Part shown: positions 5,947 through 63,080 of the stretch, in pieces | How positions within the stretch are numbered: the stretch's first letter is position 1 | Layout of the letters: each line of letters opens with the position of its first letter | Sequence record: NC_052656.1 | DNA: 64,000 bases | Direction: 5' to 3' (one strand) | Source of the DNA: Escherichia phage anhysbys | Notes under the pieces: model-generated | Told to the model about the DNA's origin: nothing | The model's input: only the letters and a program-made list of their open reading frames with translations | The model's database searches: none | Translations under genes and position numbers: made by a program

Positions 5947-6123
5947 ATGTCTGAATTCTTCACAATGGCTTTCTTAGGGATCTATTTGATTATTAGTGCT
6001 GTTGGCTTAATCATGTCTCTAATAGAGGAAATGGGAATTAAGTGGAATTGTGTATTCGGTATAGCTCTTATGCTCACTCCAGTTTGGATTTACATTTGCA
6101 AATCGGTTGAACTAATTGGTTAA
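5947..6123 (+). CDS. small hydrophobic (membrane) protein
   Basis: Track frame 5935-6123; start refined to MSEFFTMAFLGIYLIISAVG. Confidence 0.5.
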   Translation: MSEFFTMAFLGIYLIISAVGLIMSLIEEMGIKWNCVFGIALMLTPVWIYICKSVELIG

Positions 6124-6133
6124 TGGAGGTAAT

Positions 6134-6472
6134 ATGTTTAGTAAAGAAATGAGAGAGGTGATCGCTACTCTGGTAGTTGATCATGGTGTTGAAGTTGAGC
6201 GTCACGTTTGGAAAGATGAGCCTCCTTTCTTTGATTTGGCATCACGGGCTAAAAGTCACATGTATCTCCTTGAAGATGATAAGGATTTTATTCTGCGTAT
6301 GCGTTATGATCGAGAGTTTAGAATTCCTCTTGACACAGATCCTGATGATGTAGTATTGTGGTTGGCAGAGCATTTCGCATTTAACGCTCTACATGGAAGA
6401 AGTTTTGGTAATGAACGTTGGGATACCATTTGTCGTAAACATAATATTGAACCAGAATACGGGAGTATGTAA
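6134..6472 (+). CDS. hypothetical protein
   Basis: Track frame; start refined to MFSKEM after GGAGG RBS. Confidence 0.55.
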   Translation: MFSKEMREVIATLVVDHGVEVERHVWKDEPPFFDLASRAKSHMYLLEDDKDFILRMRYDREFRIPLDTDPDDVVLWLAEHFAFNALHGRSFGNERWDTICRKHNIEPEYGSM

Positions 6473-6723
6473 TGTTAAGCGTTAAGCCTAAGATGATCAG
6501 TGAAGACCAGAAAGATTTCATTTACAAGTGTGGACGAATCTGGAGAGAGTATACCAAGGGTAACGAGGTCGTGGTGGTTACTGAACACCAGATTGAAATC
6601 TCTGATCTTTTCGGTGATTATTTGCAAGTGATCAAATTAGGCATTGACAGAGGTTTGGTGCAGGTGTTAACATTATCCCAAGTTGAAGCAGAACACTTAG
6701 ACAAAATCATTGTCGAGTTCTAA
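6472..6723 (+). CDS. hypothetical protein
   Basis: ORF track 83 aa. Confidence 0.5.
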   Translation: MLSVKPKMISEDQKDFIYKCGRIWREYTKGNEVVVVTEHQIEISDLFGDYLQVIKLGIDRGLVQVLTLSQVEAEHLDKIIVEF

Positions 6724-6736
6724 GAGGAGAAAGAAT

Positions 6737-6901
6737 ATGATCTCTTTAGAATCAATAGCTTTTAAGAAAGGGTATACCGCAGGGTTCAAGTTTGGTATGT
6801 TTAATAAAGTAAATCCATATTGTCCAAAGACACACAAAAAGGAATTCGAAGAATGGGAAGATGGATTTTCTAAAGGCTATCAGGCAAAAGGTTGGTTGTA
6901 A
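6737..6901 (+). CDS. hypothetical protein
   Basis: Track frame; start refined to MISLESIAF after AAGAGGAG. Confidence 0.45.
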   Translation: MISLESIAFKKGYTAGFKFGMFNKVNPYCPKTHKKEFEEWEDGFSKGYQAKGWL

Positions 6902-6910
6902 GGAGAGAAT

Positions 6911-7075
6911 ATGATTTTAAACTTCATCATCAACTTGTGTTTGACATTGGGATTACTCTGTGCAATAGTATCCCCTCTGGTTGGTGAATATTGTTCTGAA
7001 CTGGCGATGTTTATAGTTCTTGGTGCGGCTATTGCTAATATGTTTGTCGCTGCGATTTGTATGTTGTGGGAATAG
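6911..7075 (+). CDS. small hydrophobic (membrane) protein (~54 aa)
   Basis: Own translation MILNFIINLCLTLGLLCAIVSPLVGEYCSELAMFIVLGAAIANMF...; AGGAGAG RBS. Confidence 0.4.
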   Translation: MILNFIINLCLTLGLLCAIVSPLVGEYCSELAMFIVLGAAIANMFVAAICMLWE

Positions 7076-7086
7076 GAGGGAAGTTT

Positions 7087-7443
7087 ATGAAAAAACTAAT
7101 CTTAGCCACATTGCTGGCTACCGTAAGCTTCACCACTTACGCTCAAAAATTTGTAGCAGTTAAAACGGATATTGGTAAAGATGTTGTGATCACAGGCAAC
7201 AAATTTTACTATACACCTGGAAATGGTGTTCTGGAAGAGTGCCAAGATGTTGAGGCATATACAGGAAAAGAAGATAACACGGAACGTCCTTTTTATTCGA
7301 TTATAGCTACTTGCAAAAATGAAATAGTAGCTATTAAACAATACAAAGATGCCCCTGGAGGAGAATACTTGTTAGTCAAGAATATTAAGAGTGAAAAAAC
7401 TGCAAAGTTTACAGTAATTATTTTAAAAGGAGAAACGTTCTAA
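7087..7443 (+). CDS. putative secreted protein
   Basis: Track frame; start refined to MKKLILATLLATVSFTTYAQ (signal peptide) after AGGAGGG. Confidence 0.6.
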   Translation: MKKLILATLLATVSFTTYAQKFVAVKTDIGKDVVITGNKFYYTPGNGVLEECQDVEAYTGKEDNTERPFYSIIATCKNEIVAIKQYKDAPGGEYLLVKNIKSEKTAKFTVIILKGETF

Positions 7444-8582
7444 TGAAATACACTATTTTTGGAGATGTAGCTGTTGTAAATAAGGAATATGGCGTTGAAG
7501 CTAATAAACTTCCTGCTGGAGTTTGGGTTGTCAACTGCGATCCGCACGGTAACTACTCTTTAGTGCGTGGCGAAAGTTTCTCTCTTCCGAACACTCTTTA
7601 TGGGGAAACTAAAGATCGCGCCGCACATGTTATTAAAACATTTGCTCGTCGTAGTAAAGAAGGTAAAAATACTGGGGTGTTACTGACAGGGACAAAGGGC
7701 AGTGGTAAGACGATGTTAGCTAAACTGATTAGCATGTCCCTAATGTCCACAGAAGGTTTAGGTATTCCAACCATTTTGGTGACACAGCCTTACACAGATG
7801 CTGGATTCTTAGAATTTATGAGTAAAATTACAGATCGTGCTGTTGTTTTATTTGACGAATTTGATAAAGTGTACGCTAAGAAAGAAGATCAGGAAGCACT
7901 GTTGACCTTGTTGGATGGAACAGGAAGTGGGAATAAACTTTACATCCTAACTAAAAATAGTGGTTATATCTCGGAATATTTTGTAAACCGTCCTAGTCGT
8001 ATCTATTATAGTTTCAATTACGATAAACTGTCTAGTGAAACTATGTTAGATTACTTGGATAAGAACTTGGTAAATAAAAAACACGTAGATAACTTCCAAC
8101 GTTTATGGGATGTTAGCACAGAGTTGTCTTTCGATGTTATTCAAGGTATTGTAGAAGAATTGAATTTCTATCCAAAAATGACTTTTAAAGAATGTCTTGA
8201 AATGATGGGTATTTCTTTAGGCAACGATGCTAAATGGAATGTGGCTTCTATCGTAGCTAATGGCAAAACCTTGAAGGTGAATTGGATCAATAACTGGCAC
8301 GACTTCACCCCTACTAAGTTTTTGTCGGGTGCTTGTTCCCTGAACATATATCTGCAAAGCTTGAAAGATGATGAAGTGGAAGCAATGGAAACCAACAGTT
8401 ATGTTATCCTGGATGAAGATGGTGATCCACATATTGATCTATGTGCAACTGCTGATGGTCTAACTTGTGATCTGATTGAAGGTGGTAAGATTCTGGTGAT
8501 GAGCACCACACCAGGAAACACTCTGCGAGTGGTACTGGAGCCTGTAACACAACGTTCCACCACACTGGGTAGCGTGTTCTAA
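7443..8582 (+). CDS. AAA+/P-loop ATPase
   Basis: Walker A GTKGSGKT, Walker B-like VVLFDEFDK; 379 aa. Confidence 0.7.
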   Translation: MKYTIFGDVAVVNKEYGVEANKLPAGVWVVNCDPHGNYSLVRGESFSLPNTLYGETKDRAAHVIKTFARRSKEGKNTGVLLTGTKGSGKTMLAKLISMSLMSTEGLGIPTILVTQPYTDAGFLEFMSKITDRAVVLFDEFDKVYAKKEDQEALLTLLDGTGSGNKLYILTKNSGYISEYFVNRPSRIYYSFNYDKLSSETMLDYLDKNLVNKKHVDNFQRLWDVSTELSFDVIQGIVEELNFYPKMTFKECLEMMGISLGNDAKWNVASIVANGKTLKVNWINNWHDFTPTKFLSGACSLNIYLQSLKDDEVEAMETNSYVILDEDGDPHIDLCATADGLTCDLIEGGKILVMSTTPGNTLRVVLEPVTQRSTTLGSVF

Positions 8583-48182: not shown

Positions 48183-48925
48183 TAATCCTCCTCAAGAGTT
48201 GAATAAAATTGAAGACCACCGTCCATATCGAAATAAGCAAATGTTAAGTTATTATTGAACACAGATCCAGTATCCATATAAACACGATTCGCATTGATAA
48301 TAGGTGTTTTTACATAAGAGTGTCCATGAAACACATAATCCACACCCATCACAACAGGAAGTTTCATTCCCTCTTTAGCACAATCCACCATATCTCTGTC
48401 CCACATAAGTGCTTCAGCAAAACGGTTTTCCTGTGTTTTTGTCATCTTCGAAGTGTATTCTGGAATATCTGTTACAGGGAGATATTCCAAAGAAGACGGA
48501 TACCCACCATGAATAAACGCAAGTTTCATGCCTCTGTAGTTAACAATGAGAACAACAGGTAAATCTTCTGTCATCATTGCTAAGGCTGTAGCTCCTTCTT
48601 CACCACATTCTTCAAAGACCGTATATCCTCCATTTTGATACCAACACTCGTAGTAGCTACGATCTCCTTCCAGCATACCTTTAATCATCATGTCTTCATG
48701 ATTGCCACGAATAGCGTAGCGATTGTGTTTACGAGTAAATTCTAAAACACAACGAAAATTTTGCTTTCCACGGTCAGTAAGATCTCCTAGAGATACAACC
48801 ACATCTGTATCTCGGATACCTAACTTTGCCTTTCCTTTTTCATACAAATTATAACAACCGTGTAGATCTCCAATTATAAAAAGATCTTGATCGCTTTTAA
48901 CAGTAATTTCTCTGTGTATGATCAC
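48182..48925 (-). CDS. Ser/Thr protein phosphatase (calcineurin-like metallophosphoesterase)
   Basis: GDLHGC, GDLTDRG, GNHE signature motifs in order. Confidence 0.8.
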   Translation of the reverse strand: MIIHREITVKSDQDLFIIGDLHGCYNLYEKGKAKLGIRDTDVVVSLGDLTDRGKQNFRCVLEFTRKHNRYAIRGNHEDMMIKGMLEGDRSYYECWYQNGGYTVFEECGEEGATALAMMTEDLPVVLIVNYRGMKLAFIHGGYPSSLEYLPVTDIPEYTSKMTKTQENRFAEALMWDRDMVDCAKEGMKLPVVMGVDYVFHGHSYVKTPIINANRVYMDTGSVFNNNLTFAYFDMDGGLQFYSTLEED

Positions 48926-49251
48926 TTATCCTCCTCAAAATCTAAGAAAATAAAAATATTCACCTTTCCTTCAATCTCTTGTTCTAAAACAAGATCGGCA
49001 AATTCTGCATAAGCTTTCTCTTCAACTTTTTCAATATGTTCTGCGGCATCTTTAAAAGGCGTATCCCCATCCACCTTTACTAATAAGAAAAGAGATCGCA
49101 TTTCGACGTTTTTACTGTTACGAGGAAGGAAATCTACAGCTTCAACAATTCTCCAACCCAAATAGCCAGGGGTTTTATGAATCTCCCCTAAATACTTTTC
49201 TAAGATTTTACGACCCTCGTCGATAAGGGCTTGTTCTGTAGTAATTTCCAT
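48922..49251 (-). CDS. hypothetical protein
   Basis: ORF track 109 aa. Confidence 0.55.
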   Translation of the reverse strand: MEITTEQALIDEGRKILEKYLGEIHKTPGYLGWRIVEAVDFLPRNSKNVEMRSLFLLVKVDGDTPFKDAAEHIEKVEEKAYAEFADLVLEQEIEGKVNIFIFLDFEEDK

Positions 49252-49261
49252 TCCTTCCTCC

Positions 49262-49852
49262 TCAAATTATTAACGAAACCGCATGACTAAATCTTGGTTC
49301 AGATATAACCTCTGCTACAGTCACATATGTATCGTGCAGCCAAAAAGATTCTACTCTACAAACACAAATACCGTTGATAATGAAATCTACACAGGCTTTA
49401 TTATTTTCGCACACTTGTTGACTATAAACAACCCCTAAAGAGTCATAAAGTGATCTCACTGTTGCTACCATTTCATCTGTTTCGTCTTCCTGTGAAACAA
49501 AGAAAACGAATACAGACAAGTTATTAGCGAAAGTATTGCTATTCTCTACTTCAACCGACTTACAAGGTAAAAAGGAGTAATATTTACCGTTAGGTATCAA
49601 TTTCGCCTCAACCTGGTTAAGTATGCTTTGAGATGGTTTTGTTACATAAAAAAGATTTTCTGTTGGGTTTTCAACATTGCTCCTTACTATGCAACGAGTG
49701 GGGTTCGAAGGATCAAAAACATGATCGAAATCGACACACACAGGTAAGTTAACAACTTTAAACTTTTTGCTAAGAATGCTTACTGCTGTAAAAATCAAAC
49801 CAGCATTTATTTTGCCAGTGAAAGTTGAACGCATAACTACTCCTCGGATCAT
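49262..49852 (-). CDS. hypothetical protein
   Basis: ORF track 196 aa. Confidence 0.55.
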   Translation of the reverse strand: MIRGVVMRSTFTGKINAGLIFTAVSILSKKFKVVNLPVCVDFDHVFDPSNPTRCIVRSNVENPTENLFYVTKPSQSILNQVEAKLIPNGKYYSFLPCKSVEVENSNTFANNLSVFVFFVSQEDETDEMVATVRSLYDSLGVVYSQQVCENNKACVDFIINGICVCRVESFWLHDTYVTVAEVISEPRFSHAVSLII

Positions 49853-50043
49853 TCTACCAAAGAGAATTCCGCCTCTTCTAGGTAGATTACAGACCTTGTT
49901 GCATGATATTTAACGCTCCAGAAATTACCTTCGCGCCGTAAAAGTATCTCATTCACATCAAGATTGCTTAGAAAAACCATATAACTTAAAGCTTGTTGAC
50001 GCGTTGAGAATTGTTTCTCTAAAAGTTCTTCTCCGCTCTGCAT
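49849..50043 (-). CDS. hypothetical protein
   Basis: ORF track 64 aa. Confidence 0.5.
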   Translation of the reverse strand: MQSGEELLEKQFSTRQQALSYMVFLSNLDVNEILLRREGNFWSVKYHATRSVIYLEEAEFSLVE

Positions 50044-50089
50044 AATCCCTCCTTAAAAATACTCCCTCCGAAAAGGGAGTATAAGTATA

Positions 50090-50293
50090 TCACGTAGTTG
50101 TTATGTTGTCTTCTTGGATACTAGAATCCACTTCTGCAAACATATCTTCTGCACTGTAATTATTTCCAGTCCAGCGTGATAAAAGGATAGCACCAATCTC
50201 TTTTGCATGAGATTCGGACTCCGCATAAACGTTAGTCCCAGTGTCACCTTTTTTCTTTTCATGTGCATAAATGCAGTAATAATTGTAAGCCAT
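50090..50293 (-). CDS. hypothetical protein
   Basis: ORF track 67 aa. Confidence 0.5.
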   Translation of the reverse strand: MAYNYYCIYAHEKKKGDTGTNVYAESESHAKEIGAILLSRWTGNNYSAEDMFAEVDSSIQEDNITTT

Positions 50294-50529
50294 TAATCTT
50301 CCCAGTCATTGCCCTCGGTAGAGTGAACTAAAGCTCGCACGATACCACCGTAATCTACTGCCTGATTTGCAGCATGTTCGGCATAAACTTCAATGGCTTT
50401 TTTGAAGAAAAGAGCAGTAGCTGCTTCAATATTATCCATTTCGCCATCTACGTCAGTAGAAAGTGAAAGGTTGAGGCTTTCATCTACTTCATCAAAATCA
50501 ATAGCCACTGTCATAATTAGTTTACCCAT
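50293..50529 (-). CDS. hypothetical acidic protein
   Basis: ORF track 78 aa. Confidence 0.5.
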   Translation of the reverse strand: MGKLIMTVAIDFDEVDESLNLSLSTDVDGEMDNIEAATALFFKKAIEVYAEHAANQAVDYGGIVRALVHSTEGNDWED

Positions 50530-50541
50530 AGTTCACACTCC

Positions 50542-51051
50542 TTAAACAAAATAAAATGGTTGAGAGAGGCCCAAACGATTCTTTGGGTCGTATACATACC
50601 AAGCGTATGCTGTTTTATCTGTTCCACCTGCAACAAACGAAGGCCGTTCTGAAAGGACTATAAGGTTTGTTGGTGGATTCTTTTGATGGAACTCTCGTCG
50701 TTTCTTTGACTCCAAGAAGCCCAACCGAAGAAGATAAATACAAACATCCGCCTCTTTTAAGCTCTTTTCCAAGAACTCCATTGCTAACTTAAATGGAGGA
50801 TTTGTGATTATAATGTCGGGACGATTTTCCCATTCATGACTAAAATAATCTTTACCTTCTTCAAGTTCGCAATATTCTGAACCTTCAGGAAAATGGCGAT
50901 AAATCGCTTCAGCTTCACCTCTGCAAGGTTCTGCAAAAACCCAACCTTCTTCCTTTAGATTTTTGAAATCTATAACACTAAACAAACTATTGATTGCTTT
51001 TTGCGGTGTCGGATAATAATCGCTCGTTGGGCGATCATAATCTAATGCCAT
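50542..51051 (-). CDS. putative DNA N6-adenine/N4-cytosine methyltransferase (small, NPPF motif)
   Basis: IIITNPPF catalytic tetrapeptide; YYPTP near N-terminus; 169 aa. Confidence 0.55.
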   Translation of the reverse strand: MALDYDRPTSDYYPTPQKAINSLFSVIDFKNLKEEGWVFAEPCRGEAEAIYRHFPEGSEYCELEEGKDYFSHEWENRPDIIITNPPFKLAMEFLEKSLKEADVCIYLLRLGFLESKKRREFHQKNPPTNLIVLSERPSFVAGGTDKTAYAWYVYDPKNRLGLSQPFYFV

Positions 51052-51469
51052 CTAAAATCTCCTCTTTTGTAATATTATCCAACTCTTTAAAGGATGAAAT
51101 CTCGTTTAATAATCCTATTTGATCAGCTTCTAGAGGATAAGTGTTTTTATCTGTTTTTCTAGACAGAATATCTTCAACAAACTTATCAATAGCCAAAGAA
51201 GAATCATAAAATTTTAAAAGTTGGTAATCCATAGGAGATATTTTGTCATCTCTTAGAAATATTTCTAACATGTTTTCAGGAGTATCATGGTTTAGTTTAT
51301 GTTCACCAAAAATATTAACTTCGTAAACATCTTTGCCAAACCAACGTTTCTTCTTTTCAACAGTATAGGTTTTTTCCACCAGACCATCTAAACAGTTTCT
51401 TGCCCTCTTACATGTTTGACGGTAAGAGTGGATAGCGCCTTCAACAAACTTAGCAGGAACTTGTAACAT
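51035..51469 (-). CDS. hypothetical protein
   Basis: ORF track 144 aa. Confidence 0.55.
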   Translation of the reverse strand: MLQVPAKFVEGAIHSYRQTCKRARNCLDGLVEKTYTVEKKKRWFGKDVYEVNIFGEHKLNHDTPENMLEIFLRDDKISPMDYQLLKFYDSSLAIDKFVEDILSRKTDKNTYPLEADQIGLLNEISSFKELDNITKEEILDGIRL

Positions 51470-51493
51470 TATTAATCTCCTATGTTTAAGAAA

Positions 51494-51509
51494 TGCCCCC
51501 GAAGGGGCA
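51494..51509 (-). other. intercistronic CUUCGG-type hairpin
   Basis: Minus-strand UGCCCC-UUCG-GGGGCA after HslV-like gene. Confidence 0.5.
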
Positions 51510-51514
51510 GTTTG

Positions 51515-52207
51515 TTAAATAGCGGTTCCTTCGAAATCCGCCACATTTACGAGATTAATATTTTCAGATTTAGAAGTCAAGTTGTTTTCTGCAACAGATT
51601 TTTCTTCAGTATCCGCCTCGTTACCTGCCACGTTACGAGGTTCTTCTTCACCGTAGGGATTACCGAATTTCAAAAGATTGATCAATTCTTCTTTGGAGAA
51701 GTTTTCTAAATCATCATCTGTTAATTCAATAATCTCGTCTTGTTCTTCAATAAATGTTTCACCACCAGAAAAAGCATCTCGCTTTTTAGCTACTTCCATA
51801 GCCTGTTCTGGTGTTGCTCCTGCATCAAGAGCAGCTAAAGCAAAGTCTGACCCGCTTCCTACCGCATAATATTCTTCATCAATCGGATATGCACGTGTTG
51901 GGTTGTTACCTTCGTGCAGGAAAATACGTCCGTCTGGATGAACAACAAGTGCAATAAACTCTTCATCTTCTTTATCTGGATCAGAGTGAATCATCAAACC
52001 AGGGACAGCATCACGTGCTGCTTCGCACTGTAGATTTTGTTCAAACCATTGAAAGAAAGAAAGCACGGAGGTCAGACGACCAGCACCACCTACAAGGTAA
52101 TCTCCAATTTTTCGGACCTTTTTGAAATTAATAGAATCTACACGTCCACCAAAAGTTACCTTACCGTCACTCAAAATCTTATTTTTGGTCGCAATAATTG
52201 TCGTCAC
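51515..52207 (-). CDS. HslV-like N-terminal-threonine peptidase with acidic C-terminal extension
   Basis: MTTIIATKNK (Thr after Met), KKVRKIGDYLVGGAG, YAVGSGSDFALAALDAG match HslV/ClpQ blocks from memory. Confidence 0.65.
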   Translation of the reverse strand: MTTIIATKNKILSDGKVTFGGRVDSINFKKVRKIGDYLVGGAGRLTSVLSFFQWFEQNLQCEAARDAVPGLMIHSDPDKEDEEFIALVVHPDGRIFLHEGNNPTRAYPIDEEYYAVGSGSDFALAALDAGATPEQAMEVAKKRDAFSGGETFIEEQDEIIELTDDDLENFSKEELINLLKFGNPYGEEEPRNVAGNEADTEEKSVAENNLTSKSENINLVNVADFEGTAI

Positions 52208-54201: not shown

Positions 54202-54462
54202 TTACTCCGCAATTTGAGCCATGAGATCACGCAGTTCGGTAAAACCGCCTACGTATGTTACCTCCCCGTTCACTTCAGACAGAATTTGTGGAAATGTGCG
54301 TGGAGGAACTCCGGTAAGATCAACAACTGTTTTAGTCATTGATTCTAAATCATAGTCTTGATCAAGACTTAAATATTCAAACTGTTTATTGCGCATGGTT
54401 AATAGTTGTTTTGACATTTCGCAAAATTGACAGTTAGGTTTACCAAAAATTACAAATTCCAT
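54202..54462 (-). CDS. glutaredoxin/NrdH-like redoxin
   Basis: CQFC active site near N-terminus (FGKPNCQFCEMSK); 86 aa; adjacent to nrdAB. Confidence 0.75.
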   Translation of the reverse strand: MEFVIFGKPNCQFCEMSKQLLTMRNKQFEYLSLDQDYDLESMTKTVVDLTGVPPRTFPQILSEVNGEVTYVGGFTELRDLMAQIAE

Positions 54463-55304
54463 TACCTCTCCTTATTAAGTAATACTGCTAAAGACTGTTC
54501 AATACCTTTATTTAAATCTGATTTTGTAAGATAGTGACTGGTTACTAATTGTGACTTCACCGGACGTGCTGCTGGAGCATTATAGGTTGAAGCTGATACC
54601 GCCGATATCTTAACAGGTTCTGGCATCTGTGTCAAGATCTTTTCCGCAAACTCCGCCCAAGAAATAAAATGGCTTCCTGCAAAATGGTAAGTCTTAACAG
54701 ACCTTGACCAACCTGTTTTTAATACTTCAAAAATAGCTTCTGCTAAATCTGGAGCATATGTTGGACAAGAGAACTGATCAGCAACAACAATAAAATCACG
54801 TTGTCCATCATTATAGCGAGACAACATGGTTTTTAGAAAGTTATTTCCAAATTCGCTATATACCGAGGCTGTTCGAATAATATATGCATTTGGGTTAACT
54901 CCTCGCACCATTTTTTCACCGAGTTCTTTCGTATACCCATAATTGTTTATTGGGTTAGGTGTAGTATCTTCAAAAATAGGATGAGAATAATTAAAAATAT
55001 AATCTGTAGAAATATGCACAAAATCAATTTTAAGTTTGCTGCACACTGCCGCAATATTTGCAGGTCCATACGCATTAACAGCCAAAGCAGTAGCAAAATC
55101 ATGTTCTGCTTTATCTACAGCCGTATAAGCAGCGCAGTTAATAACACCGTCTACATAATCTTCAACAATAGCGTTTCGCACAGCTTCAAAATTTGTAATA
55201 TCTACACGTTCTTTAGGATAAATTAAAGATACATTCGAAGGAACCACTTTACGTAAAGCTTGTCCCAGTTGTCCATTACCACCTAATACCAGATATGTTA
55301 GCAT
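54462..55304 (-). CDS. rmlD: dTDP-4-dehydrorhamnose reductase-like (RmlD family)
   Basis: N-terminal Rossmann LVLGGNGQLGQAL; 280 aa; overlaps rmlC by 7 nt. Confidence 0.75.
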   Translation of the reverse strand: MLTYLVLGGNGQLGQALRKVVPSNVSLIYPKERVDITNFEAVRNAIVEDYVDGVINCAAYTAVDKAEHDFATALAVNAYGPANIAAVCSKLKIDFVHISTDYIFNYSHPIFEDTTPNPINNYGYTKELGEKMVRGVNPNAYIIRTASVYSEFGNNFLKTMLSRYNDGQRDFIVVADQFSCPTYAPDLAEAIFEVLKTGWSRSVKTYHFAGSHFISWAEFAEKILTQMPEPVKISAVSASTYNAPAARPVKSQLVTSHYLTKSDLNKGIEQSLAVLLNKER

Positions 55305-55864
55305 ACACCCTCACTACGTAGCTGTTGAAAAGATTTAGCCATTGCATCTTTTGTTGATAAAATAGGTTTAAAATCTTCATCAAAAATCATATCAAAGCCC
55401 CAATCGATCCCTATATCAGGATCATCCCAACGTAAACTTTGTTCACTAGAAGGGTCGTATGGAGTTGTGCATTTGTATTCAAAGATAGCATCCATACTCA
55501 AAACTATAAAACCGTGTGCCAAACCAGGTGGAAGCCAAAACTGCGTATGGTGTCGTGCACGAAGAACAACACCGTCCCAAGCACCGTAAGTTGGACTATC
55601 TTTACGTAAATCTACAGCGAAATCCAATACTTCTCCACTTACACAACGAACAAGCTTACCTTGCGGGTTGTTTGTTTGGAAGTGCATTCCTCGCAAAACA
55701 CCGAAGTTTGATTTAGACATGTTATCTTGAACGAAAGTTTGTCTACCAATAATATCTTCGTATTTTTGTTCATTGTATGTTTCTAAAAAGAAACCACGAT
55801 CATCTTTATAAACGTCTGGTTTGATAATTACCGCACCTTCAATTTTTGTTTTTTCTACTTTCAT
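55298..55864 (-). CDS. rmlC: dTDP-4-dehydrorhamnose 3,5-epimerase (RmlC cupin)
   Basis: DDRGFFLETY, LRGMHFQ, KLVRCVSGEVLDFAVDLRKDSPTYG, PPGLAHGF match RmlC. Confidence 0.85.
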   Translation of the reverse strand: MKVEKTKIEGAVIIKPDVYKDDRGFFLETYNEQKYEDIIGRQTFVQDNMSKSNFGVLRGMHFQTNNPQGKLVRCVSGEVLDFAVDLRKDSPTYGAWDGVVLRARHHTQFWLPPGLAHGFIVLSMDAIFEYKCTTPYDPSSEQSLRWDDPDIGIDWGFDMIFDEDFKPILSTKDAMAKSFQQLRSEGVC

Positions 55865-55873
55865 TTTCTCTCC

Positions 55874-56200
55874 TTACCAGACATGTTGAGAAATAATAGT
55901 TTCCGTTTTAATGTTATATTTTTCAAGTAGCTCTGCATAGGCTTCTTTTGCATTCTCATTTAATTGCTCAAGATCTACAGCTACGCTTCCTTCTCCGCCT
56001 TCTAAATAAATACCATATATGCAATAAGACTCATCAGCATCGTAGAAAGGAGAGATGCGACTTAAGTCCAGACCTTCTTGTAAGAACCAGTTAAAATCTC
56101 CGTCAAATTCTTCTTCAATTCTAGGATCTTCTCCTACAGCCTCTTCCCACTTATTAAAAGGTGCACCCTGTAACATACGCCATTCGATATCAATACCCAT
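55874..56200 (-). CDS. hypothetical acidic protein
   Basis: ORF track 108 aa. Confidence 0.55.
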   Translation of the reverse strand: MGIDIEWRMLQGAPFNKWEEAVGEDPRIEEEFDGDFNWFLQEGLDLSRISPFYDADESYCIYGIYLEGGEGSVAVDLEQLNENAKEAYAELLEKYNIKTETIISQHVW

Positions 56201-56496: not shown

Positions 56497-56705
56497 TATT
56501 CCTCCTTAATTATTTCAAACTTGGCAACACCATTTACAATAATATGACCACAAGACATAACTCCTAGCCAAGGATCGCCGTTTTTCTTCAGGCGTTTACC
56601 GAATACATCACAAAAACCATTCTTCATTTCGGAGGCTTCATAAGAAGCCCCTTTGTCAAAAACGTCTTTGAATGTGTCGATTATACCAACACATCTCAAA
56701 ATCAT
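56496..56705 (-). CDS. hypothetical protein
   Basis: ORF track 69 aa; immediately downstream of nrdB. Confidence 0.5.
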   Translation of the reverse strand: MILRCVGIIDTFKDVFDKGASYEASEMKNGFCDVFGKRLKKNGDPWLGVMSCGHIIVNGVAKFEIIKEE

Positions 56706-57790
56706 TAGAAGTCAAGCTCCTCATCATCAGAGAGATCTTTGTTAGCTGAATTCAATTTGTAATTAGTTAACTGAATCTCTTGGGCTGCTGACTGAATCAA
56801 ATCAGGATTCAACCATTTTTCCATCCAAGCTAAAGGACTATGTTTAGGTGCTTTAAACTTGGCTTTCATTTTCAATCGACGATAAATAGGAGCAGCATTG
56901 AAATAAACCCACTGTTTAGACAATTCGGCGTTAAGACCTACAATAAAACGACCTTCACTAAACAGGTAGTCACACCACTGTTCCTCTTGTTCAACAACAG
57001 TGTCGAGGATCAAAGTCAACTCTTCAATATTGTCTTCGTAAATTTTACGCCAAATTGGGTCATGCATCAATGCATCAATTACAGCATAATCCATCTTAAC
57101 ATGCAAGATTTCATCTAGCATAATTTTCTGGATCAGCTTACAAGCCCCAACAAACAATTGTTGTTCTGCCATAGCAAAAGTAGCAGAGAAGGAAGATATA
57201 AACTGAATACCTTCTAATCCAATCAGGGCTACCATCCCTTTAAGAATCAGCAATCGAAGTTCATCGTTAGCTTCAATCAATCCTAGAGCATACTTATGAC
57301 CAGCTTCTTCCAACTGACCCATGATATCAGCAATGATACCCATACGATTGAAAATTTTATCATTAATCATAATCTGATTGATGACTTCAATTGGATCTGG
57401 AGTACATTGACGGATTATTTCAGAATACGTTAACGCATGGAGAACTTCCATTTCACTCTGCTTCATCATCATAGCACAGGCTTCATTGTTACTCAAGAAT
57501 GGAGAGAACAAAGTGATGATTGATTTTGCAAGAGAATCATTTTCCCATTGGAACGATAAGTTTTTAATCATAACATCATAGTTGTTTTTAGAACAAGCTA
57601 CGAAATCTTTACGTGTCTGATCCAAGTTAACTTCGTTTTCATCCCAATCTTGTGCTTTTTGAAGTTTGTAGAGTTTGTGCATTTCTGGATAAGTTACGTT
57701 AACAGAATCAAAGATCCCTAATTGCTCCCCCAAAAATACTGGATATTTTCCTGTTTTGTAAACTTCGTTGTGTAAATTAATTGCTGCCAT
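56705..57790 (-). CDS. nrdB: ribonucleotide reductase class Ia beta subunit
   Basis: Di-iron/tyrosyl radical blocks EMEVLHALTYSE and DEILHVKMDY; 361 aa. Confidence 0.9.
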   Translation of the reverse strand: MAAINLHNEVYKTGKYPVFLGEQLGIFDSVNVTYPEMHKLYKLQKAQDWDENEVNLDQTRKDFVACSKNNYDVMIKNLSFQWENDSLAKSIITLFSPFLSNNEACAMMMKQSEMEVLHALTYSEIIRQCTPDPIEVINQIMINDKIFNRMGIIADIMGQLEEAGHKYALGLIEANDELRLLILKGMVALIGLEGIQFISSFSATFAMAEQQLFVGACKLIQKIMLDEILHVKMDYAVIDALMHDPIWRKIYEDNIEELTLILDTVVEQEEQWCDYLFSEGRFIVGLNAELSKQWVYFNAAPIYRRLKMKAKFKAPKHSPLAWMEKWLNPDLIQSAAQEIQLTNYKLNSANKDLSDDEELDF

Positions 57791-57810: not shown

Positions 57811-57827
57811 AAGGGGCCGAAGCCCCT
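57811..57827 (-). other. intercistronic CUUCGG-type hairpin
   Basis: Minus-strand AGGGGC-UUCG-GCCCCU + UUUUUAUU between nrdA and nrdB. Confidence 0.6.
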
Positions 57828-57834
57828 AGTTTCA

Positions 57835-60075
57835 TCACATCTTGCAAGCTTCACAACCACCATCAGAATCTTCTTGTGCTAAAGAGTCTGCTGATTTTGT
57901 TCTACTATTAAGGTAATACAACGACTTACCACCCAGTCTAGCAAAATTCAGAATAAACTGCATCTCAGCTTTCACTGATAAACGTCCACCTACCAATTTA
58001 GAATAATCTAGCCAAGAATCACAAGAAATTCCTTGGTCCGTAAACTTGGTAAAGATACCATACATTTCTGCAAGGTCTTTAGCAGGAGTGTCCCAGGCGG
58101 ACTGGTAGAACATTTTCAGTTTTTCGTAGTCTGGAACAATAAATAATACACTACCTTTCTGACTTTGTTTATACATAATAGTATCACGAACAGGATACAG
58201 AGAGTTAGTAGTATTGCTTACCAAACTGCTGGACTCATTAGGTGCGATAGCAGCCAAGACACTGTTACGGATACCACCTTGTTCAATGATTTCAGCACGT
58301 AAGCCTTCCCAATCCATTTTAAGATCAAAATTACCGATACTATCTACTGTTTTAGCATAAGTGTCAATTGGTAGCCAACCTTGAGGCCATTTGGTCTTAT
58401 CGATCCATTCCGCATTACCTTTTTCCTTAGCCAGACGCAGAGAGGCTTTTGCCAACCAAAAGTAATGACGTTCTGCAAGTTCATGCATTAATTTTTTAGC
58501 ATAAGCATCTGAATAATTTACAAAATTACTTGCCAAGTAATGTGCTAAGTTTGTAATACCTACACCAATAGATCTACGTGCTTTAGCAGTTATTTCGTTA
58601 TGTTTAAATGGATAATCCATTGTTTCAATAACGTTGTCAATTGTCAATACAGTGTAGTATGCAACATCCTCATATTCTTCAGGTAAGACACGACCAGCAA
58701 CAATAGAAGATAAGAAGCATAAAGCCAATTCTTGATCTTCTGTATTCTCACCAGTAAAGAGATCCGGCATACTGTGGAAAGCTTTAGTTGGTAAGAAGAT
58801 CTCTTGACACAGGTTTGATTGATACACCGTATCCAGGAAAGGTGTATGGTTGTTAACGTTGTCCGCAAAGAACATGTAAATACGTCCTGTTTCTGCACGT
58901 TGAACAATAATCTCTGTCAGAAGATCACGAGCCTTAACAAATTTTTTCTTAATGCGACGACGGCTTACTTTGTCATAAACTGCATCAAACTCTTCTTCAC
59001 TTTTATACAAAGCTTCATAAAGTTCAGGAGCATCATCACAACTAACTAACATCCAATCTTCGTTTTTTGCTGCTCGACGCAAGAACGAACGGTTAACAAC
59101 AATAGAATAATCCAGTTTGTCTACTCGTTTATCTATAGGTGTTGTTGGATTCTTCAGTCGAATCAGATCGTCGAAGTCTGGTTCAAGTATGGTAAAGGTA
59201 ACTGTAGCACTACCTCCACGGCTTGCTTGCTTCGAAGCTCCAACACTATCTTCCATCCATTTCAGATACGGAAGAAGACCACCATGAATAATACGATTAT
59301 TCTTAACACCTTGACCTGTGGCACGAGTTTGAAGATTAACACCAATACCTGCGTTATTCAACGTATACTCATGAGCTAAGTAATTAGCAATGGCTAAAGA
59401 CTCTGCTGTGTCATCTGCACGGAATAAACAACAAGACGCACTTCCTTTGATTGGAGTTCGTAGAGTTGTCAGATATGGTGATGGCAGATTAATCTTAAGA
59501 TCGCTAACATAAGTATACAGTTTTTTAATATCTTCTATACGGCGTTCTTTTGGTTGGATCTCCATAACCTTCATTGCGATACCAATGAAAAGAAACTGTG
59601 GAGACTCATGCACCACATCGTTTACTGCATCTCGGATAAGATATTTATCCACCATCTGACGTAAAACAGAATAGCCATAAGTTAGATTTTTATTATGCTT
59701 TACAATCTTACCAATTTCTTTGATCTCTTCATCAGTATAATCCATTTTAGCCCAATGTCCACGTTCTACCATATCATGATAAAAGGTATTCAGTGAAGGG
59801 ATACTGTGGTATCCCCCATGAGCCTGTTTGTAAATCATACCCAGAAGAAGTCTTCCTGCCATATCACTGTAAGCTTGTGTTTTCTTGTCAATACACGCTG
59901 CAATCATTGCTTTATGCAGATCACGTGTAGACACACCGTCATAACACCGCTTCACAGCTTCTAATTCAATTTCAGACCAGTTTAGTTTACCTGCTGCAAA
60001 TTCAGACCACTTGCGAAGTTTTTCTGGATTAAACTCCTCTATCTTACCGTTAGATTTAGTTACAAAACGAATCAA
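57835..60075 (-). CDS. nrdA: ribonucleotide reductase class Ia alpha subunit
   Basis: 746 aa; N-terminal ATP-cone-like region, C-terminal Cys pair; paired with nrdB. Confidence 0.9.
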   Translation of the reverse strand: MIRFVTKSNGKIEEFNPEKLRKWSEFAAGKLNWSEIELEAVKRCYDGVSTRDLHKAMIAACIDKKTQAYSDMAGRLLLGMIYKQAHGGYHSIPSLNTFYHDMVERGHWAKMDYTDEEIKEIGKIVKHNKNLTYGYSVLRQMVDKYLIRDAVNDVVHESPQFLFIGIAMKVMEIQPKERRIEDIKKLYTYVSDLKINLPSPYLTTLRTPIKGSASCCLFRADDTAESLAIANYLAHEYTLNNAGIGVNLQTRATGQGVKNNRIIHGGLLPYLKWMEDSVGASKQASRGGSATVTFTILEPDFDDLIRLKNPTTPIDKRVDKLDYSIVVNRSFLRRAAKNEDWMLVSCDDAPELYEALYKSEEEFDAVYDKVSRRRIKKKFVKARDLLTEIIVQRAETGRIYMFFADNVNNHTPFLDTVYQSNLCQEIFLPTKAFHSMPDLFTGENTEDQELALCFLSSIVAGRVLPEEYEDVAYYTVLTIDNVIETMDYPFKHNEITAKARRSIGVGITNLAHYLASNFVNYSDAYAKKLMHELAERHYFWLAKASLRLAKEKGNAEWIDKTKWPQGWLPIDTYAKTVDSIGNFDLKMDWEGLRAEIIEQGGIRNSVLAAIAPNESSSLVSNTTNSLYPVRDTIMYKQSQKGSVLFIVPDYEKLKMFYQSAWDTPAKDLAEMYGIFTKFTDQGISCDSWLDYSKLVGGRLSVKAEMQFILNFARLGGKSLYYLNSRTKSADSLAQEDSDGGCEACKM

Positions 60076-60091: not shown

Positions 60092-60346
60092 TTAATGCAT
60101 ATTCAAAACATCTACATCATAACCGAACTTCATTTCATTAAAAAGTCCATTAGCATATAGAAAACCTTCAAAATGAGTTATGTCATCAAACCCTTTTGCT
60201 TTTGCTCGACGGTCTGCTTCTTGTCTTTTAGGAGATAAACGTTTTGAAGTGTCTAGAATTACAGTTACATTACAACCAACAGTTTCATCAAAATAGACTT
60301 CGATTTCACAGCCTTCATATTTATTATCAGTCATTGTCCCTCTCAT
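60092..60346 (-). CDS. hypothetical protein
   Basis: ORF track 84 aa. Confidence 0.55.
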   Translation of the reverse strand: MRGTMTDNKYEGCEIEVYFDETVGCNVTVILDTSKRLSPKRQEADRRAKAKGFDDITHFEGFLYANGLFNEMKFGYDVDVLNMH

Positions 60347-60753
60347 TGATTAGTATCATCTGCTTTCGCAGGATCATAAGAGTTACCGAAATCATCCATC
60401 TTAATATGTGACGCACCCCAACCTGTAAATTCTTCATCACCAAAATGAAAAATATCGTTTTCTTGATAGATTCGTTTAAAACCACAATTAGGTGAAACAG
60501 GGAAAGTGAAAAGCGTTGTATTTGCAAACACTACTCGCTTATCGTTATTGCTTCGGATATTCACATTACGCTCAACAGAATAGTGTGAATCTTCAGCCAT
60601 ACCCAGCATTACAAGCGACGCTCTAATAACAGCATTTTGTTTCTCGTGTGGGATATTGCCATTGTGTTTATTTGATTCTAGTTTCCAGATAGGGGTAGAC
60701 ATTACAGTAGACATGCTTACGGTAGCCCAAGTTGTAGTATTTACTAATGACAT
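60343..60753 (-). CDS. hypothetical protein
   Basis: Track frame 60343-60786; start refined to MSLVNTTTWA after GAAGGAGAAAA. Confidence 0.55.
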   Translation of the reverse strand: MSLVNTTTWATVSMSTVMSTPIWKLESNKHNGNIPHEKQNAVIRASLVMLGMAEDSHYSVERNVNIRSNNDKRVVFANTTLFTFPVSPNCGFKRIYQENDIFHFGDEEFTGWGASHIKMDDFGNSYDPAKADDTNQ

Positions 60754-60851
60754 ATTTTCTCCTTCATTTTGAATGGGAGGACTCACCTCCTCCCAGTATT
60801 GTGCTATATTATACTAAAACTAATACTAAAGTCAATAATTATTTAAACAGA

Positions 60852-61850
60852 TCACCATTTAGTATGATTTGTTAAAAGTTGACGATGTTGAATCCAGCCT
60901 TTGAAATTGCCAGACCAAAACTTACCATTACGATCTACATGGGTAATACCTGGTTCCCAAGAGTTAAAATCCCAAGGAGCATTGATAAACAAATCTTCAA
61001 AACAGTTCTCCCCATATTGTTCGCATGTTTCTTGCATTGGGGTGGCTTGATGTTCAAACGGAGAAGCATGAACCTTGCGCCCAGTCAGCAAACGACCATA
61101 GATATCTAAAGCTTTATCTTTAGTTGCATTCAAACGACGATAGCTAACCTGTGCACAACACGAAGCTGAAATAGCTTTGGCTTCTTCCAAAGTAAGCACA
61201 ACAACTTCTCCAGATTCATCTTGAACATAGTATCCACCAAAAACAAAATGATCGTCACCTTCTGTGCCAATATTATCATAGAAATGGTCTACATAAGGTG
61301 TGTGCCATTGCCCTGGTTTCAGCACTTCTGGTGTAGATTCTTCATACTCTTTGTGCATCTCTTTAGCCAAAGCTTCGATAGTAGGATCGGCTTCTTTGTC
61401 ATCACGTAGCCACCAGAAATTTTCATATTCTGTTGCTGTCAGAACTGTTTTAATTCGTTGGAAAGGTTCCAGAAGACGGTTTGCAACTTGTTTGTGGTAC
61501 CCTGCCAAAGAGAATTCTTCTGCAAAACGTGCTGCACTAAGCGCGGCAAGATCCCACCACTCTTGAGCAGTATAACCTGCATCAATAAGAGCATCATGGT
61601 CAACACCTTTGTCCTGCATACCAGGTTGGTTAGCCCCAAAACGATAAGGACGAGCAGGCTGATTTCGAACCATTTCGATCAGTGTTTTAACAGGTATAGC
61701 ACGGCTAGAAGCAGCATTACGACTGAACAGGCGGTGAGTCATCAGTTCTGAATGAATAATACGTGGATATTCAAGTTCGAAAGTTACAATCTCTTTTCCG
61801 TCTTCAGTGATGGAATGCGCAATAATACTAGCCGAAATCTGTTTTGTCAT
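60852..61850 (-). CDS. thyX: flavin-dependent thymidylate synthase-like (ThyX family)
   Basis: HRLFSRNAASSRA fits ThyX HR.FS....S.R signature; 332 aa, longer than typical. Confidence 0.7.
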   Translation of the reverse strand: MTKQISASIIAHSITEDGKEIVTFELEYPRIIHSELMTHRLFSRNAASSRAIPVKTLIEMVRNQPARPYRFGANQPGMQDKGVDHDALIDAGYTAQEWWDLAALSAARFAEEFSLAGYHKQVANRLLEPFQRIKTVLTATEYENFWWLRDDKEADPTIEALAKEMHKEYEESTPEVLKPGQWHTPYVDHFYDNIGTEGDDHFVFGGYYVQDESGEVVVLTLEEAKAISASCCAQVSYRRLNATKDKALDIYGRLLTGRKVHASPFEHQATPMQETCEQYGENCFEDLFINAPWDFNSWEPGITHVDRNGKFWSGNFKGWIQHRQLLTNHTKW

Positions 61851-61859
61851 TTTTTCTCC

Positions 61860-62468
61860 TTAGTTTTTAAAATTGTTCAAAGTGTTAAAAACATCCAAAC
61901 ATGTTAGCCACTGATCTTCTAAACCTGTGATCACAACATTTGGTTTTTTCTTTAGTTCTTCTAGATGGTTATCTTTATAAGGCGTATTAAAATATATTTT
62001 AACCACTTCATCTGGAAAATATAGTAGGTTATCAGCCCTGTCATCTATTGCTATATCACAAGGCAATAAGTATTTTTCTTTCGTAGCAAAAAAGCCGTTG
62101 CCAGATCCTTTGCTAAAATCAATCGTATCTAATGTTCTTAAAACATGCTTATGTTTAGAACTTAAGTGACCACCTTTTGTCACACTTGCGATCAAAAGAT
62201 TGCTACCTTTCCTTGAAACATACTTTAAGAAATCTGGCATACCTGGAACAAAACCCATTGTATCATAGAGATGAGGATTATCCAGAAATCCGTAAGGATC
62301 TATATTGAACTCCTCCCTGAAACCAGGAAAGTAGTTGGTAAGATCATAGTCTGCATTTTTTGTGAATGTGTCTATCTTAACACCAAGTCCACTAATCTTA
62401 TTCAACCATTCTAACCAAGCAACATCTAATGGAGCCACAACTAAATCCCAATCACATACTATCTGCAT
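61860..62468 (-). CDS. HAD-superfamily hydrolase (possible 5'-nucleotidase)
   Basis: N-terminal DWDLV fits HAD motif I D.D.(T/V); later IASVTKGG and IAIDDRADN. Confidence 0.55.
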   Translation of the reverse strand: MQIVCDWDLVVAPLDVAWLEWLNKISGLGVKIDTFTKNADYDLTNYFPGFREEFNIDPYGFLDNPHLYDTMGFVPGMPDFLKYVSRKGSNLLIASVTKGGHLSSKHKHVLRTLDTIDFSKGSGNGFFATKEKYLLPCDIAIDDRADNLLYFPDEVVKIYFNTPYKDNHLEELKKKPNVVITGLEDQWLTCLDVFNTLNNFKN

Positions 62469-62504: not shown

Positions 62505-63080
62505 CTAACTTTCAATTTCCTGCAATAGGATTTTGACTATTTGTTTACGGCGTTTTGCTACTGTGCTTTCAGGTTCTATTTTACGCTTCTTCAGCCATGC
62601 TTTATCTTTCTTAGCTCTGCACAAAGCTATCGCTTCTTTTTCAGCTTTCGCTTCTTCAAAAGATATACCTTGTTTATCTGCATAAGCAAGAATAGAGTTG
62701 CACAATTTACAAACCATTCGCAAATCTTCTTCTTTCACATAGATTAAACGGAAAACAAAAAGAGGAATATCATCAAAACATTGAAGTTGTTTTGCTGCGT
62801 GAATATGATCCACTTGGAAGTCTTTCATTCCTCCTCTATGTCCACATATTTCGCACTCACAATTCCAAACTTGTTTTGGTTTTCCAGTTTTCTTGTCTAT
62901 CATCACATTGCCGTCTTTATCTACTCGATCAACTTTAAAACGCCTTGCATTGATAACCTTAATTTTATTAGGGTGTCTCATCCATGCTTTTCTAAAACAT
63001 CCCCTAAGATAAGTATAAAATTCAGCTTGTGTTTTCCAGGGTGTTCCTTCACCCCACATTATTTTTGGTTCACCTGCCAA
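62505..63080 (-). CDS. HNH endonuclease (likely free-standing homing endonuclease)
   Basis: CECEICGH ... QVDHIHA ... CKLCNSILA; flanked by terminator and own promoter region. Confidence 0.75.
   Translation of the reverse strand: MAGEPKIMWGEGTPWKTQAEFYTYLRGCFRKAWMRHPNKIKVINARRFKVDRVDKDGNVMIDKKTGKPKQVWNCECEICGHRGGMKDFQVDHIHAAKQLQCFDDIPLFVFRLIYVKEEDLRMVCKLCNSILAYADKQGISFEEAKAEKEAIALCRAKKDKAWLKKRKIEPESTVAKRRKQIVKILLQEIES

Follow-up and report, generated by a model that had tools for sequence, protein, structure and literature searches.

The window, a stretch of 64,000 nucleotides from Escherichia phage anhysbys (NC_052656.1), carries on its minus strand an open reading frame of 332 codons plus stop (bp 60852 to 61850). 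It has an ATG start in the ORF listing, putatively encodes a flavin-dependent thymidylate synthase of a rearranged subfamily, and is referred to below as the thyX-like gene. This is plainly a real gene and not a chance ORF. The 332-aa frame called in the first-pass annotation was borne out, on the minus strand, by homologues down to E = 2e-229, and the product matches phrog_85 ('thymidylate synthase') at E = 2e-109. A Shine-Dalgarno sequence read from the DNA, AAGGAG (bp 61856 to 61861, minus strand), precedes the ATG by 5 nt and shares bases with the TAA stop of the gene before it; the two genes are therefore probably co-expressed. The preceding gene (bp 61860 to 62468, minus strand; phrog_420), directly upstream and probably co-transcribed with the thyX-like gene, codes for an NT5C-like HAD 5'-deoxynucleotidase that scores 26.1 bits against Pfam NT5C (cut-off 24.8) and has the DxDxV motif (DWDLV) at residues 6-10. 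A free-standing HNH endonuclease gene (bp 62505 to 63080, minus strand; phrog_1985, E = 8.5e-66), the product of which is probably a homing endonuclease, heads this block of nucleotide-metabolism genes.

On the other side of the thyX-like gene, two small ORFs from the ORF listing (bp 60343 to 60786 and bp 60092 to 60346) are followed by the genes for the large and small subunits of a class Ia ribonucleotide reductase, nrdA (bp 57835 to 60075) and nrdB (bp 56705 to 57790), identified from their ORFs and the annotation of syntenic records. The order is thus HNH, NT5C-like, thyX-like, two small ORFs, nrdA, nrdB, all on the minus strand. The gene had been described as next to nrdAB, which is approximately right, with the two small ORFs intervening. 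A glutaredoxin gene is found in the same gene block. Directly past the thyX-like stop, a 66-bp gap contains a sigma-70-like promoter match (TTGACT-16-TATAAT, 11/12; bp 60808 to 60835, minus strand) that may drive nrdAB and the two small ORFs as a separate transcription unit; it comes from a consensus-only scan in which matches over the scanned region were not enriched relative to shuffles. A terminator-like hairpin is present between nrdA and nrdB (bp 57812 to 57827, minus strand).

Over a 3-kb stretch the window matches many sequenced isolates at 99% identity, which places the phage in Phapecoctavirus, among the phAPEC8-like E. coli myoviruses. In the near-identical isolates the gene is labelled either 'hypothetical' or 'putative/FAD-dependent thymidylate synthase'. 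The rmlCD genes that had been listed as neighbours are both present (rmlD, bp 54462 to 55304; rmlC, bp 55298 to 55864), but lie about 5 kb from the thyX-like gene. The rmlA and rmlB genes, which in the close relatives phAPEC8_ev052 and tuntematon sit between rmlC and the next ORF, have been deleted here as a clean 1,871-bp block (junction at bp 55869-55873, window 55864-55880; counterpart block L001 5999-7869). The dTDP-rhamnose pathway is therefore incomplete in this phage, which would need RmlA/RmlB or RffH/RffG from its host. The reference Phapecoctavirus has rmlABCD and several DNA methyltransferase genes, as well as four adjacent annotated glycosyltransferase genes (gp113-116; NC_052660.1, bp 48463 to 51607).

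The signature that had suggested ThyX, HR.FS....S.R, is present as an exact fit in THRLFSRNAASSR (residues 38-50; bp 61701 to 61739, minus strand). Against Pfam Thy1 (PF02511) the thyX-like protein scored 35.0 bits, above the gathering cut-off of 24.8, in a partial match of residues 22-175 to profile positions 59-191 only. Its score against the NCBIfam thyX equivalog TIGR02170 was 31.6 bits, below the cut-off of 87.9, and a single-sequence phmmer search of PDB sequences gave no ThyX match, so that at this level the similarity to curated ThyX models is weak and partial. When a profile of 82 diverse members was used instead, the PDB matches were to ThyX chains only. An AlphaFold2 model based on 148 homologues had a pLDDT of 89.9 and a pTM of 0.88, and in a Foldseek search of the PDB all 50 matches listed were ThyX or PolB. 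The alignments produced by two fold-search programs span only about 135-157 residues with a target-normalised TM-score of about 0.5, so that superposition in sequence order is limited to a part of the canonical chain. A ThyX-type and not a ThyA-type enzyme is supported alike by the family profiles, by the structure model with its high confidence, and by the fold searches; the check for a different fold gave the ThyX fold in all matches listed. Judged by the modelled fold, the core motif, and the catalytic residues, the protein is a member of the ThyX superfamily. Two properties by which canonical ThyX is recognised are absent from it, namely colinear segment order and a score above the equivalog threshold.

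The nearest named system is canonical ThyX (T. maritima TM0449, M. tuberculosis Rv2754c, PBCV-1 A674R; PF02511, TIGR02170), in which two helices and an H-x-x-P-F-E-H loop stand between strand 1 and strand 2. Canonical ThyX is colinear, whereas the family profile matched T. maritima ThyX (Tm) out of order: in the comparison of the 82-member profile with the PDB, family positions 26-55 corresponded to Tm 61-90, positions 132-177 to Tm 155-200, and positions 216-260 to Tm about 19-61. The subfamily thus encodes the helical segment that bears the folate-stacking His after the catalytic core and not between strands 1 and 2. In the thyX-like protein the colinear core (residues 20-180; bp 61311 to 61793, minus strand) contains strand 2, the ThyX motif, a variable region, and the helices with the R147 and R174 equivalents. 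The relocated helical segment (residues 218-267; bp 61050 to 61199, minus strand), equivalent by the family profile to Tm about 20-59, ends in H261-ASPFEH267, corresponding to Tm H53..H59.

The rearrangement was examined by splicing residues 218-267 between residues 17 and 20 and rescoring with Pfam Thy1. The score of the thyX-like protein rose from 35.0 to 52.6 bits, with profile positions 14-191 covered in a single stretch, while controls with the segment reversed or shuffled (n=3) gave 30.9 and 30.8-32.3 bits, respectively. Re-ordering raised the Pfam score in 8/8 members, and in the seven others coverage began at profile position 12-16. The native and re-ordered scores of these seven were 60.1 and 70.2 bits for Saccharibacteria (L069), 60.1 and 72.3 for Eremiobacterota (L059), 29.8 and 42.0 for P0212, 41.8 and 53.8 for P0123, 40.9 and 53.0 for ICP1, 43.8 and 54.1 for Pseudomonas phage VCM, and 51.0 and 63.8 for N4-like PBM-3. 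A re-ordered family HMM matched T. maritima residues 20-90 as one domain (23.1 bits), compared with two fragments of 8.3 and 3.7 bits for the native-order HMM. The secondary structure of the model agrees, with a direct beta hairpin (6-14, 20-29) leading into the motif helix, and helices 221-236 and 244-255 and a turn at 263-266 following later. Residues 218-267 would then be spatially equivalent to the canonical N-terminal helices; confidence in the monomer model is lowest within them, at residues 231-260 (pLDDT 66-77). Databases already list the gene as a putative thymidylate synthase; no paper describing a permuted ThyX or this rearranged order was found in the searchable literature.

The length of the protein had been called unusual. 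It is indeed long relative to solved ThyX chains (216-270 aa), but 300-350 aa is normal in its own subfamily, the members of which range from 280 to 350 aa. Relative to a chain of about 220 aa, the 332 aa are explained by the relocated segment, a conserved C-terminal tail, and two further phage loops. The first of these loops is a beta-rich insertion (residues about 186-215; bp 61206 to 61295, minus strand; model strands 188-193 and 202-210) that occurs in phage members only and is absent from cellular members, as seen by alignment with Saccharibacteria and Eremiobacterota homologues. The second (residues about 273-305), likewise phage-specific and missing from cellular members, belongs to the C-terminal extension (residues 268-332; bp 60855 to 61049, minus strand), which also includes the tail WSGNFKGWIQHRQ, conserved subfamily-wide with S313 and R323 invariant. 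This extension of roughly 65 aa had no counterpart in canonical ThyX by profile comparison. The variable region (residues 52-118) is also longer and adds to the extra length.

Active-site residues were mapped to T. maritima numbering from profile alignments, and conservation was taken from 148 sequences. In T. maritima structures, H53 stacks on folate and R174 polarises the uracil; the dUMP-binding or catalytic residues are Q75, R78, E86, S88, R90, Y91, R147, and R174, and the FAD contacts H79, R80, N169, R165, and H178. H53 corresponds to H261, S88 to S48, R90 to R50, R147 to R125, N169 to N144, and R174 to R149, all six invariant; H79 and R80 are retained as H39 (invariant) and R40, S83 and N85 as S43 and N45, and E58 and H59 as E266 and H267. 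The canonical motif R-H-R-X7-S(-x-R) becomes T38-H39-R40-X7-S48-S49-R50, so that Thr stands for the first Arg while the His, the second Arg, the Ser, and the final Arg are conserved. THR was found in 204/269 representatives and RHR in 1/269. Other family-wide replacements are Q75 by E35, E86 by A46, Y91 by A51 (an invariant Ala), R165 by T140, and H178 by Asp or Glu at position 153 (E153 in the thyX-like protein). In all, about 30 positions are invariant across the 148 sequences, at identities down to 37%. Several invariants are specific to the subfamily (R30, G77-M78, K120-Q121, H183/P185, S313, and R323), and these residues are candidates for making compensating contacts. The motif following R149 reads AQPEI in 124/269 representatives and ADP(T/S)I in 108/269, the thyX-like protein and the rV5-like phage slur12 having ADPTI. 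A functional split between ADPTI and the subfamily consensus AQPEI was considered and rejected, as both variants are common and an rV5-like phage shares ADPTI.

Homologues of 520-680 aa proved to be intein-bearing, with HNH or LAGLIDADG endonuclease inteins. The reading of homologues of roughly 640 aa as tandem ThyX duplications or permutation intermediates was rejected, since inteins account for their length. Carriers include P0128, P0135, P0143, P0152, P0187, P0205, P0209, P0216, P0218, P0227, P0231, P0254, and P0255. At least six insertion sites were found, after query residues 33, 40, 42, 48, and 261 and within 149-153; four of them fall in the ThyX motif region, one at the equivalent of H53, and the remainder in the R174 motif. 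Inteins typically settle in the catalytic motifs of important enzymes, and their placement here gives independent support to these motif segments as the functional centre. The density of intein sites is unusually high for a protein of about 300 aa.

An exhaustive search gave at least 5,000 subfamily representatives after clustering at 50%, of which 1,634 were at E <= 1e-30; most are 300-350 aa long. Using tblastn, the gene was found in 1,033 phage records, including rV5-like, N4-like, phiCbK-like, and Flavobacterium phages, ICP1, and many Pseudomonas myoviruses; phAPEC8-like and PAK_P1-like phages also belong to the subfamily. The gene is carried by Saccharibacteria, Eremiobacterota, and Verrucomicrobia as well; a locus scan with a 9-sequence alignment, taking one genome per species, gave at least 472 relatives. 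The Saccharibacteria and Eremiobacterota members are 280-295 aa long and have in common with the phage members the altered segment order, the THR motif, an Ala in place of Y91, and the C-terminal tail. Of all the gene contexts, the cellular one tells most about function. In the complete Saccharibacteria genome CP011211 the gene (bp 6004 to 6846) is followed by those for dCTP deaminase (bp 6849 to 7568) and thymidylate kinase (bp 7568 to 8248), in the order nusG ... rplA ... thyX-like/dcd/tmk ... rplJ ... dnaX, and dcd follows the thyX-like gene in four Saccharibacteria loci. An Eremiobacterota copy lies on a 3.5-Mb contig in metabolic-gene surroundings.

An association with the dTTP pathway was also found in four other phage lineages, where ribonucleotide reductase or dCTP deaminase genes lie beside the gene. 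In rV5-like slur12 it is two small ORFs upstream of nrdAB, as in the window; in ICP1 (gp193) it is followed by nrdA at a distance of 3 kb; in Pseudomonas phage VCM the ribonucleotide reductase genes begin two genes downstream; and in an N4-like Gamaleyavirus a dCTP deaminase gene is 1.5 kb upstream. N4-like roseophages pair the gene with dCMP deaminase (PMC2784036, PMC11934525). The NT5C-like neighbour is more restricted: slur12 has it at 37% identity (L006 3206-3799), and it was absent beside the gene in ICP1, VCM, and N4-like phages, recurring only in the rV5/phAPEC8 lineage. Its presence as a sign of thymine exclusion was rejected on account of this restriction and because relatives are restriction-sensitive.

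With the observed fold, motif, residue conservation, out-of-order correspondence, and genomic contexts in view, the gene very probably encodes a functional ThyX/FDTS (EC 2.1.1.148) that converts dUMP to ordinary dTMP for the replication of this A+T-rich phage. ThyX is a homotetramer with active sites at subunit interfaces, and the thyX-like protein would be expected to work like ThyX, with the same cofactors, substrate, product, and oligomeric state. According to established ThyX chemistry, bound FAD would be reduced by NAD(P)H, and the methylene of 5,10-methylene-tetrahydrofolate would pass to flavin N5 and then to C5 of dUMP, which would be polarised by Arg149 (the R174 equivalent) and held by Ser48, Arg50, and Arg125. 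Reduction of the exocyclic methylene by the flavin would then give dTMP and tetrahydrofolate. DHFR would not be needed, since ThyX yields no dihydrofolate and regenerates tetrahydrofolate, and the absence of DHFR from the reference phage fits this. The annotation of that phage, tuntematon, includes ribonucleotide reductases of both the aerobic and the anaerobic type, a glutaredoxin, and a MazG-like hydrolase; it has no ThyA, DHFR, dCMP/dCTP deaminase, dUTPase, or thymidylate kinase, and the thyX-like gene is the only thymidylate-synthase-like gene annotated. The G+C content of the window is 38.9%, well below that of E. coli, which implies a high demand for dTTP.

The same substitutions occur in cellular members in a housekeeping context, which makes them a subfamily trait and not a phage-specific change of chemistry, and they are compatible with a housekeeping thymidylate synthase. 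No assay or complementation of any subfamily member was found in the searchable literature. Another phage strategy for the same purpose is ThyA, as in T4 (td) with DHFR (frd). The two share dTMP as their end product and a place beside ribonucleotide reductase in the nucleotide supply of the phage, but the fold and mechanism of ThyA are unrelated to those of the thyX-like protein, and ThyA needs DHFR because it oxidises folate. For the phage itself the outcome is ordinary: it very probably carries a DHFR-independent thymidylate synthase beside its ribonucleotide reductases, with no sign of an exotic base. A thymidylate synthase of its own beside ribonucleotide reductase is usual in many large lytic phages.

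One variant of this reading keeps thymidylate synthesis but changes the substrate form or the reductant, through altered sugar-phosphate and FAD contacts and the C-terminal tail; the enzyme might use a non-monophosphate nucleotide, or a glutaredoxin or flavodoxin partner in place of free NAD(P)H. The loss of R78 and R165, the subfamily invariants without canonical counterpart, and the glutaredoxin gene of the same block are in keeping with such a change. Nothing specific points there, however: Arg50 and Arg125, which bind phosphate, and Arg149, which polarises the uracil, are kept, and the dcd and tmk neighbours in Saccharibacteria fit a monophosphate substrate and product. We regard this variant as improbable.

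Slightly less probable again is the idea, raised in the first-pass annotation, that the ThyX fold has been repurposed for another pyrimidine C5 modification. The phage member might accept a different nucleotide or give a different C5 product, such as 5-hydroxymethyl-dUMP or a methylated cytidylate, or act as a PolB-like ribo-UMP methylase, and supply a modified base to the phage DNA, with the NT5C-like nucleotidase, the rml genes, and glycosyltransferases as possible partners. A product other than dTMP might follow from the R78T, E86A, Y91A, and R165T changes and the invariant C-terminal tail in a subfamily that is apparently uncharacterised, and would mean a DNA modification that had escaped standard restriction tests in related genera. 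This proposal was left unsupported by the contexts of the gene, as the substitutions are also found in cellular members in a thyX-like/dcd/tmk cluster amid ribosomal-protein genes, and the gene lies beside ribonucleotide reductase or dCTP deaminase genes in unrelated phage lineages. In its annotation the reference genome has neither a second thymidylate synthase that could supply T nor a 5-hmdU kinase or genes for later modification steps. PolB (Streptomyces cacaoi, PDB 4P5A) is a UMP/dUMP C5-methylase of polyoxin biosynthesis; it shows only 18% identity to the thyX-like protein, no higher than true ThyX. It belongs to an antibiotic biosynthetic pathway, and nothing comparable surrounds the thyX-like gene.

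The dUMP hydroxymethyltransferases (SPO1, ViI, M6, and others) are also phage-encoded, act on C5 of dUMP, and provide the entry to modified T; they have the ThyA fold, in contrast to the ThyX fold here, and the known thymidine hypermodification pathways all begin with such a ThyA-family enzyme (PMC8989533). Moreover, rV5-like and phi92-like relatives, which carry the gene at 53% and about 72% identity and include slur12 with the same ADPTI variant, were reported to be exceptionally sensitive to restriction enzymes (PMC8594841). These data come from related genera and not from Phapecoctavirus itself, for which no nucleoside analysis was found in the searchable literature, and a small residual probability of repurposing is kept on both counts. 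That the protein is a catalytically dead relic with a structural or regulatory role, as its weak match to curated ThyX models might hint, is hardly credible given its invariant positions, among them the catalytic Ser, Arg, and His, the targeting of exactly these motifs by inteins, and thousands of representatives in phages and cells.

More widely, a very large ThyX subfamily has a segment order unlike that of every solved ThyX structure and lies under the curated equivalog threshold, and its thymidylate synthase label derives purely from partial similarity. Thousands of annotations would gain validation from biochemical and structural work on a single member, which would also reveal what makes up for Arg78, Tyr91, and Arg165 in the rebuilt active site. 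Such work may bear on the design of ThyX-directed inhibitors and on nucleotide supply in therapeutic phages.

Some database records of the gene and its carriers deserve comment. In Pseudomonas phage VCM a 114-aa ORF labelled 'thymidylate synthase' (L008 4938-5282), which lies between the thyX-like gene and the ribonucleotide reductase genes, overlaps the thyX-like end; it may be mis-annotated or may encode a small partner protein. In the rV5-like phage vB_EcoM-ECP26 the gene looks split, with two products in BFVD, A0A4Y5TVX3 (245 aa) and A0A4Y5TVY4 (97 aa), both labelled thymidylate synthase; this may reflect a frameshift, an intron, or an endonuclease insertion. Records MG065650, MG065689, and MG065659 are labelled as Campylobacter phages (B15, A110a, and C5) and are 72-99% identical here to phAPEC8-like, phi92-like, or rV5-like phages of E. 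coli, so their host labels look doubtful.
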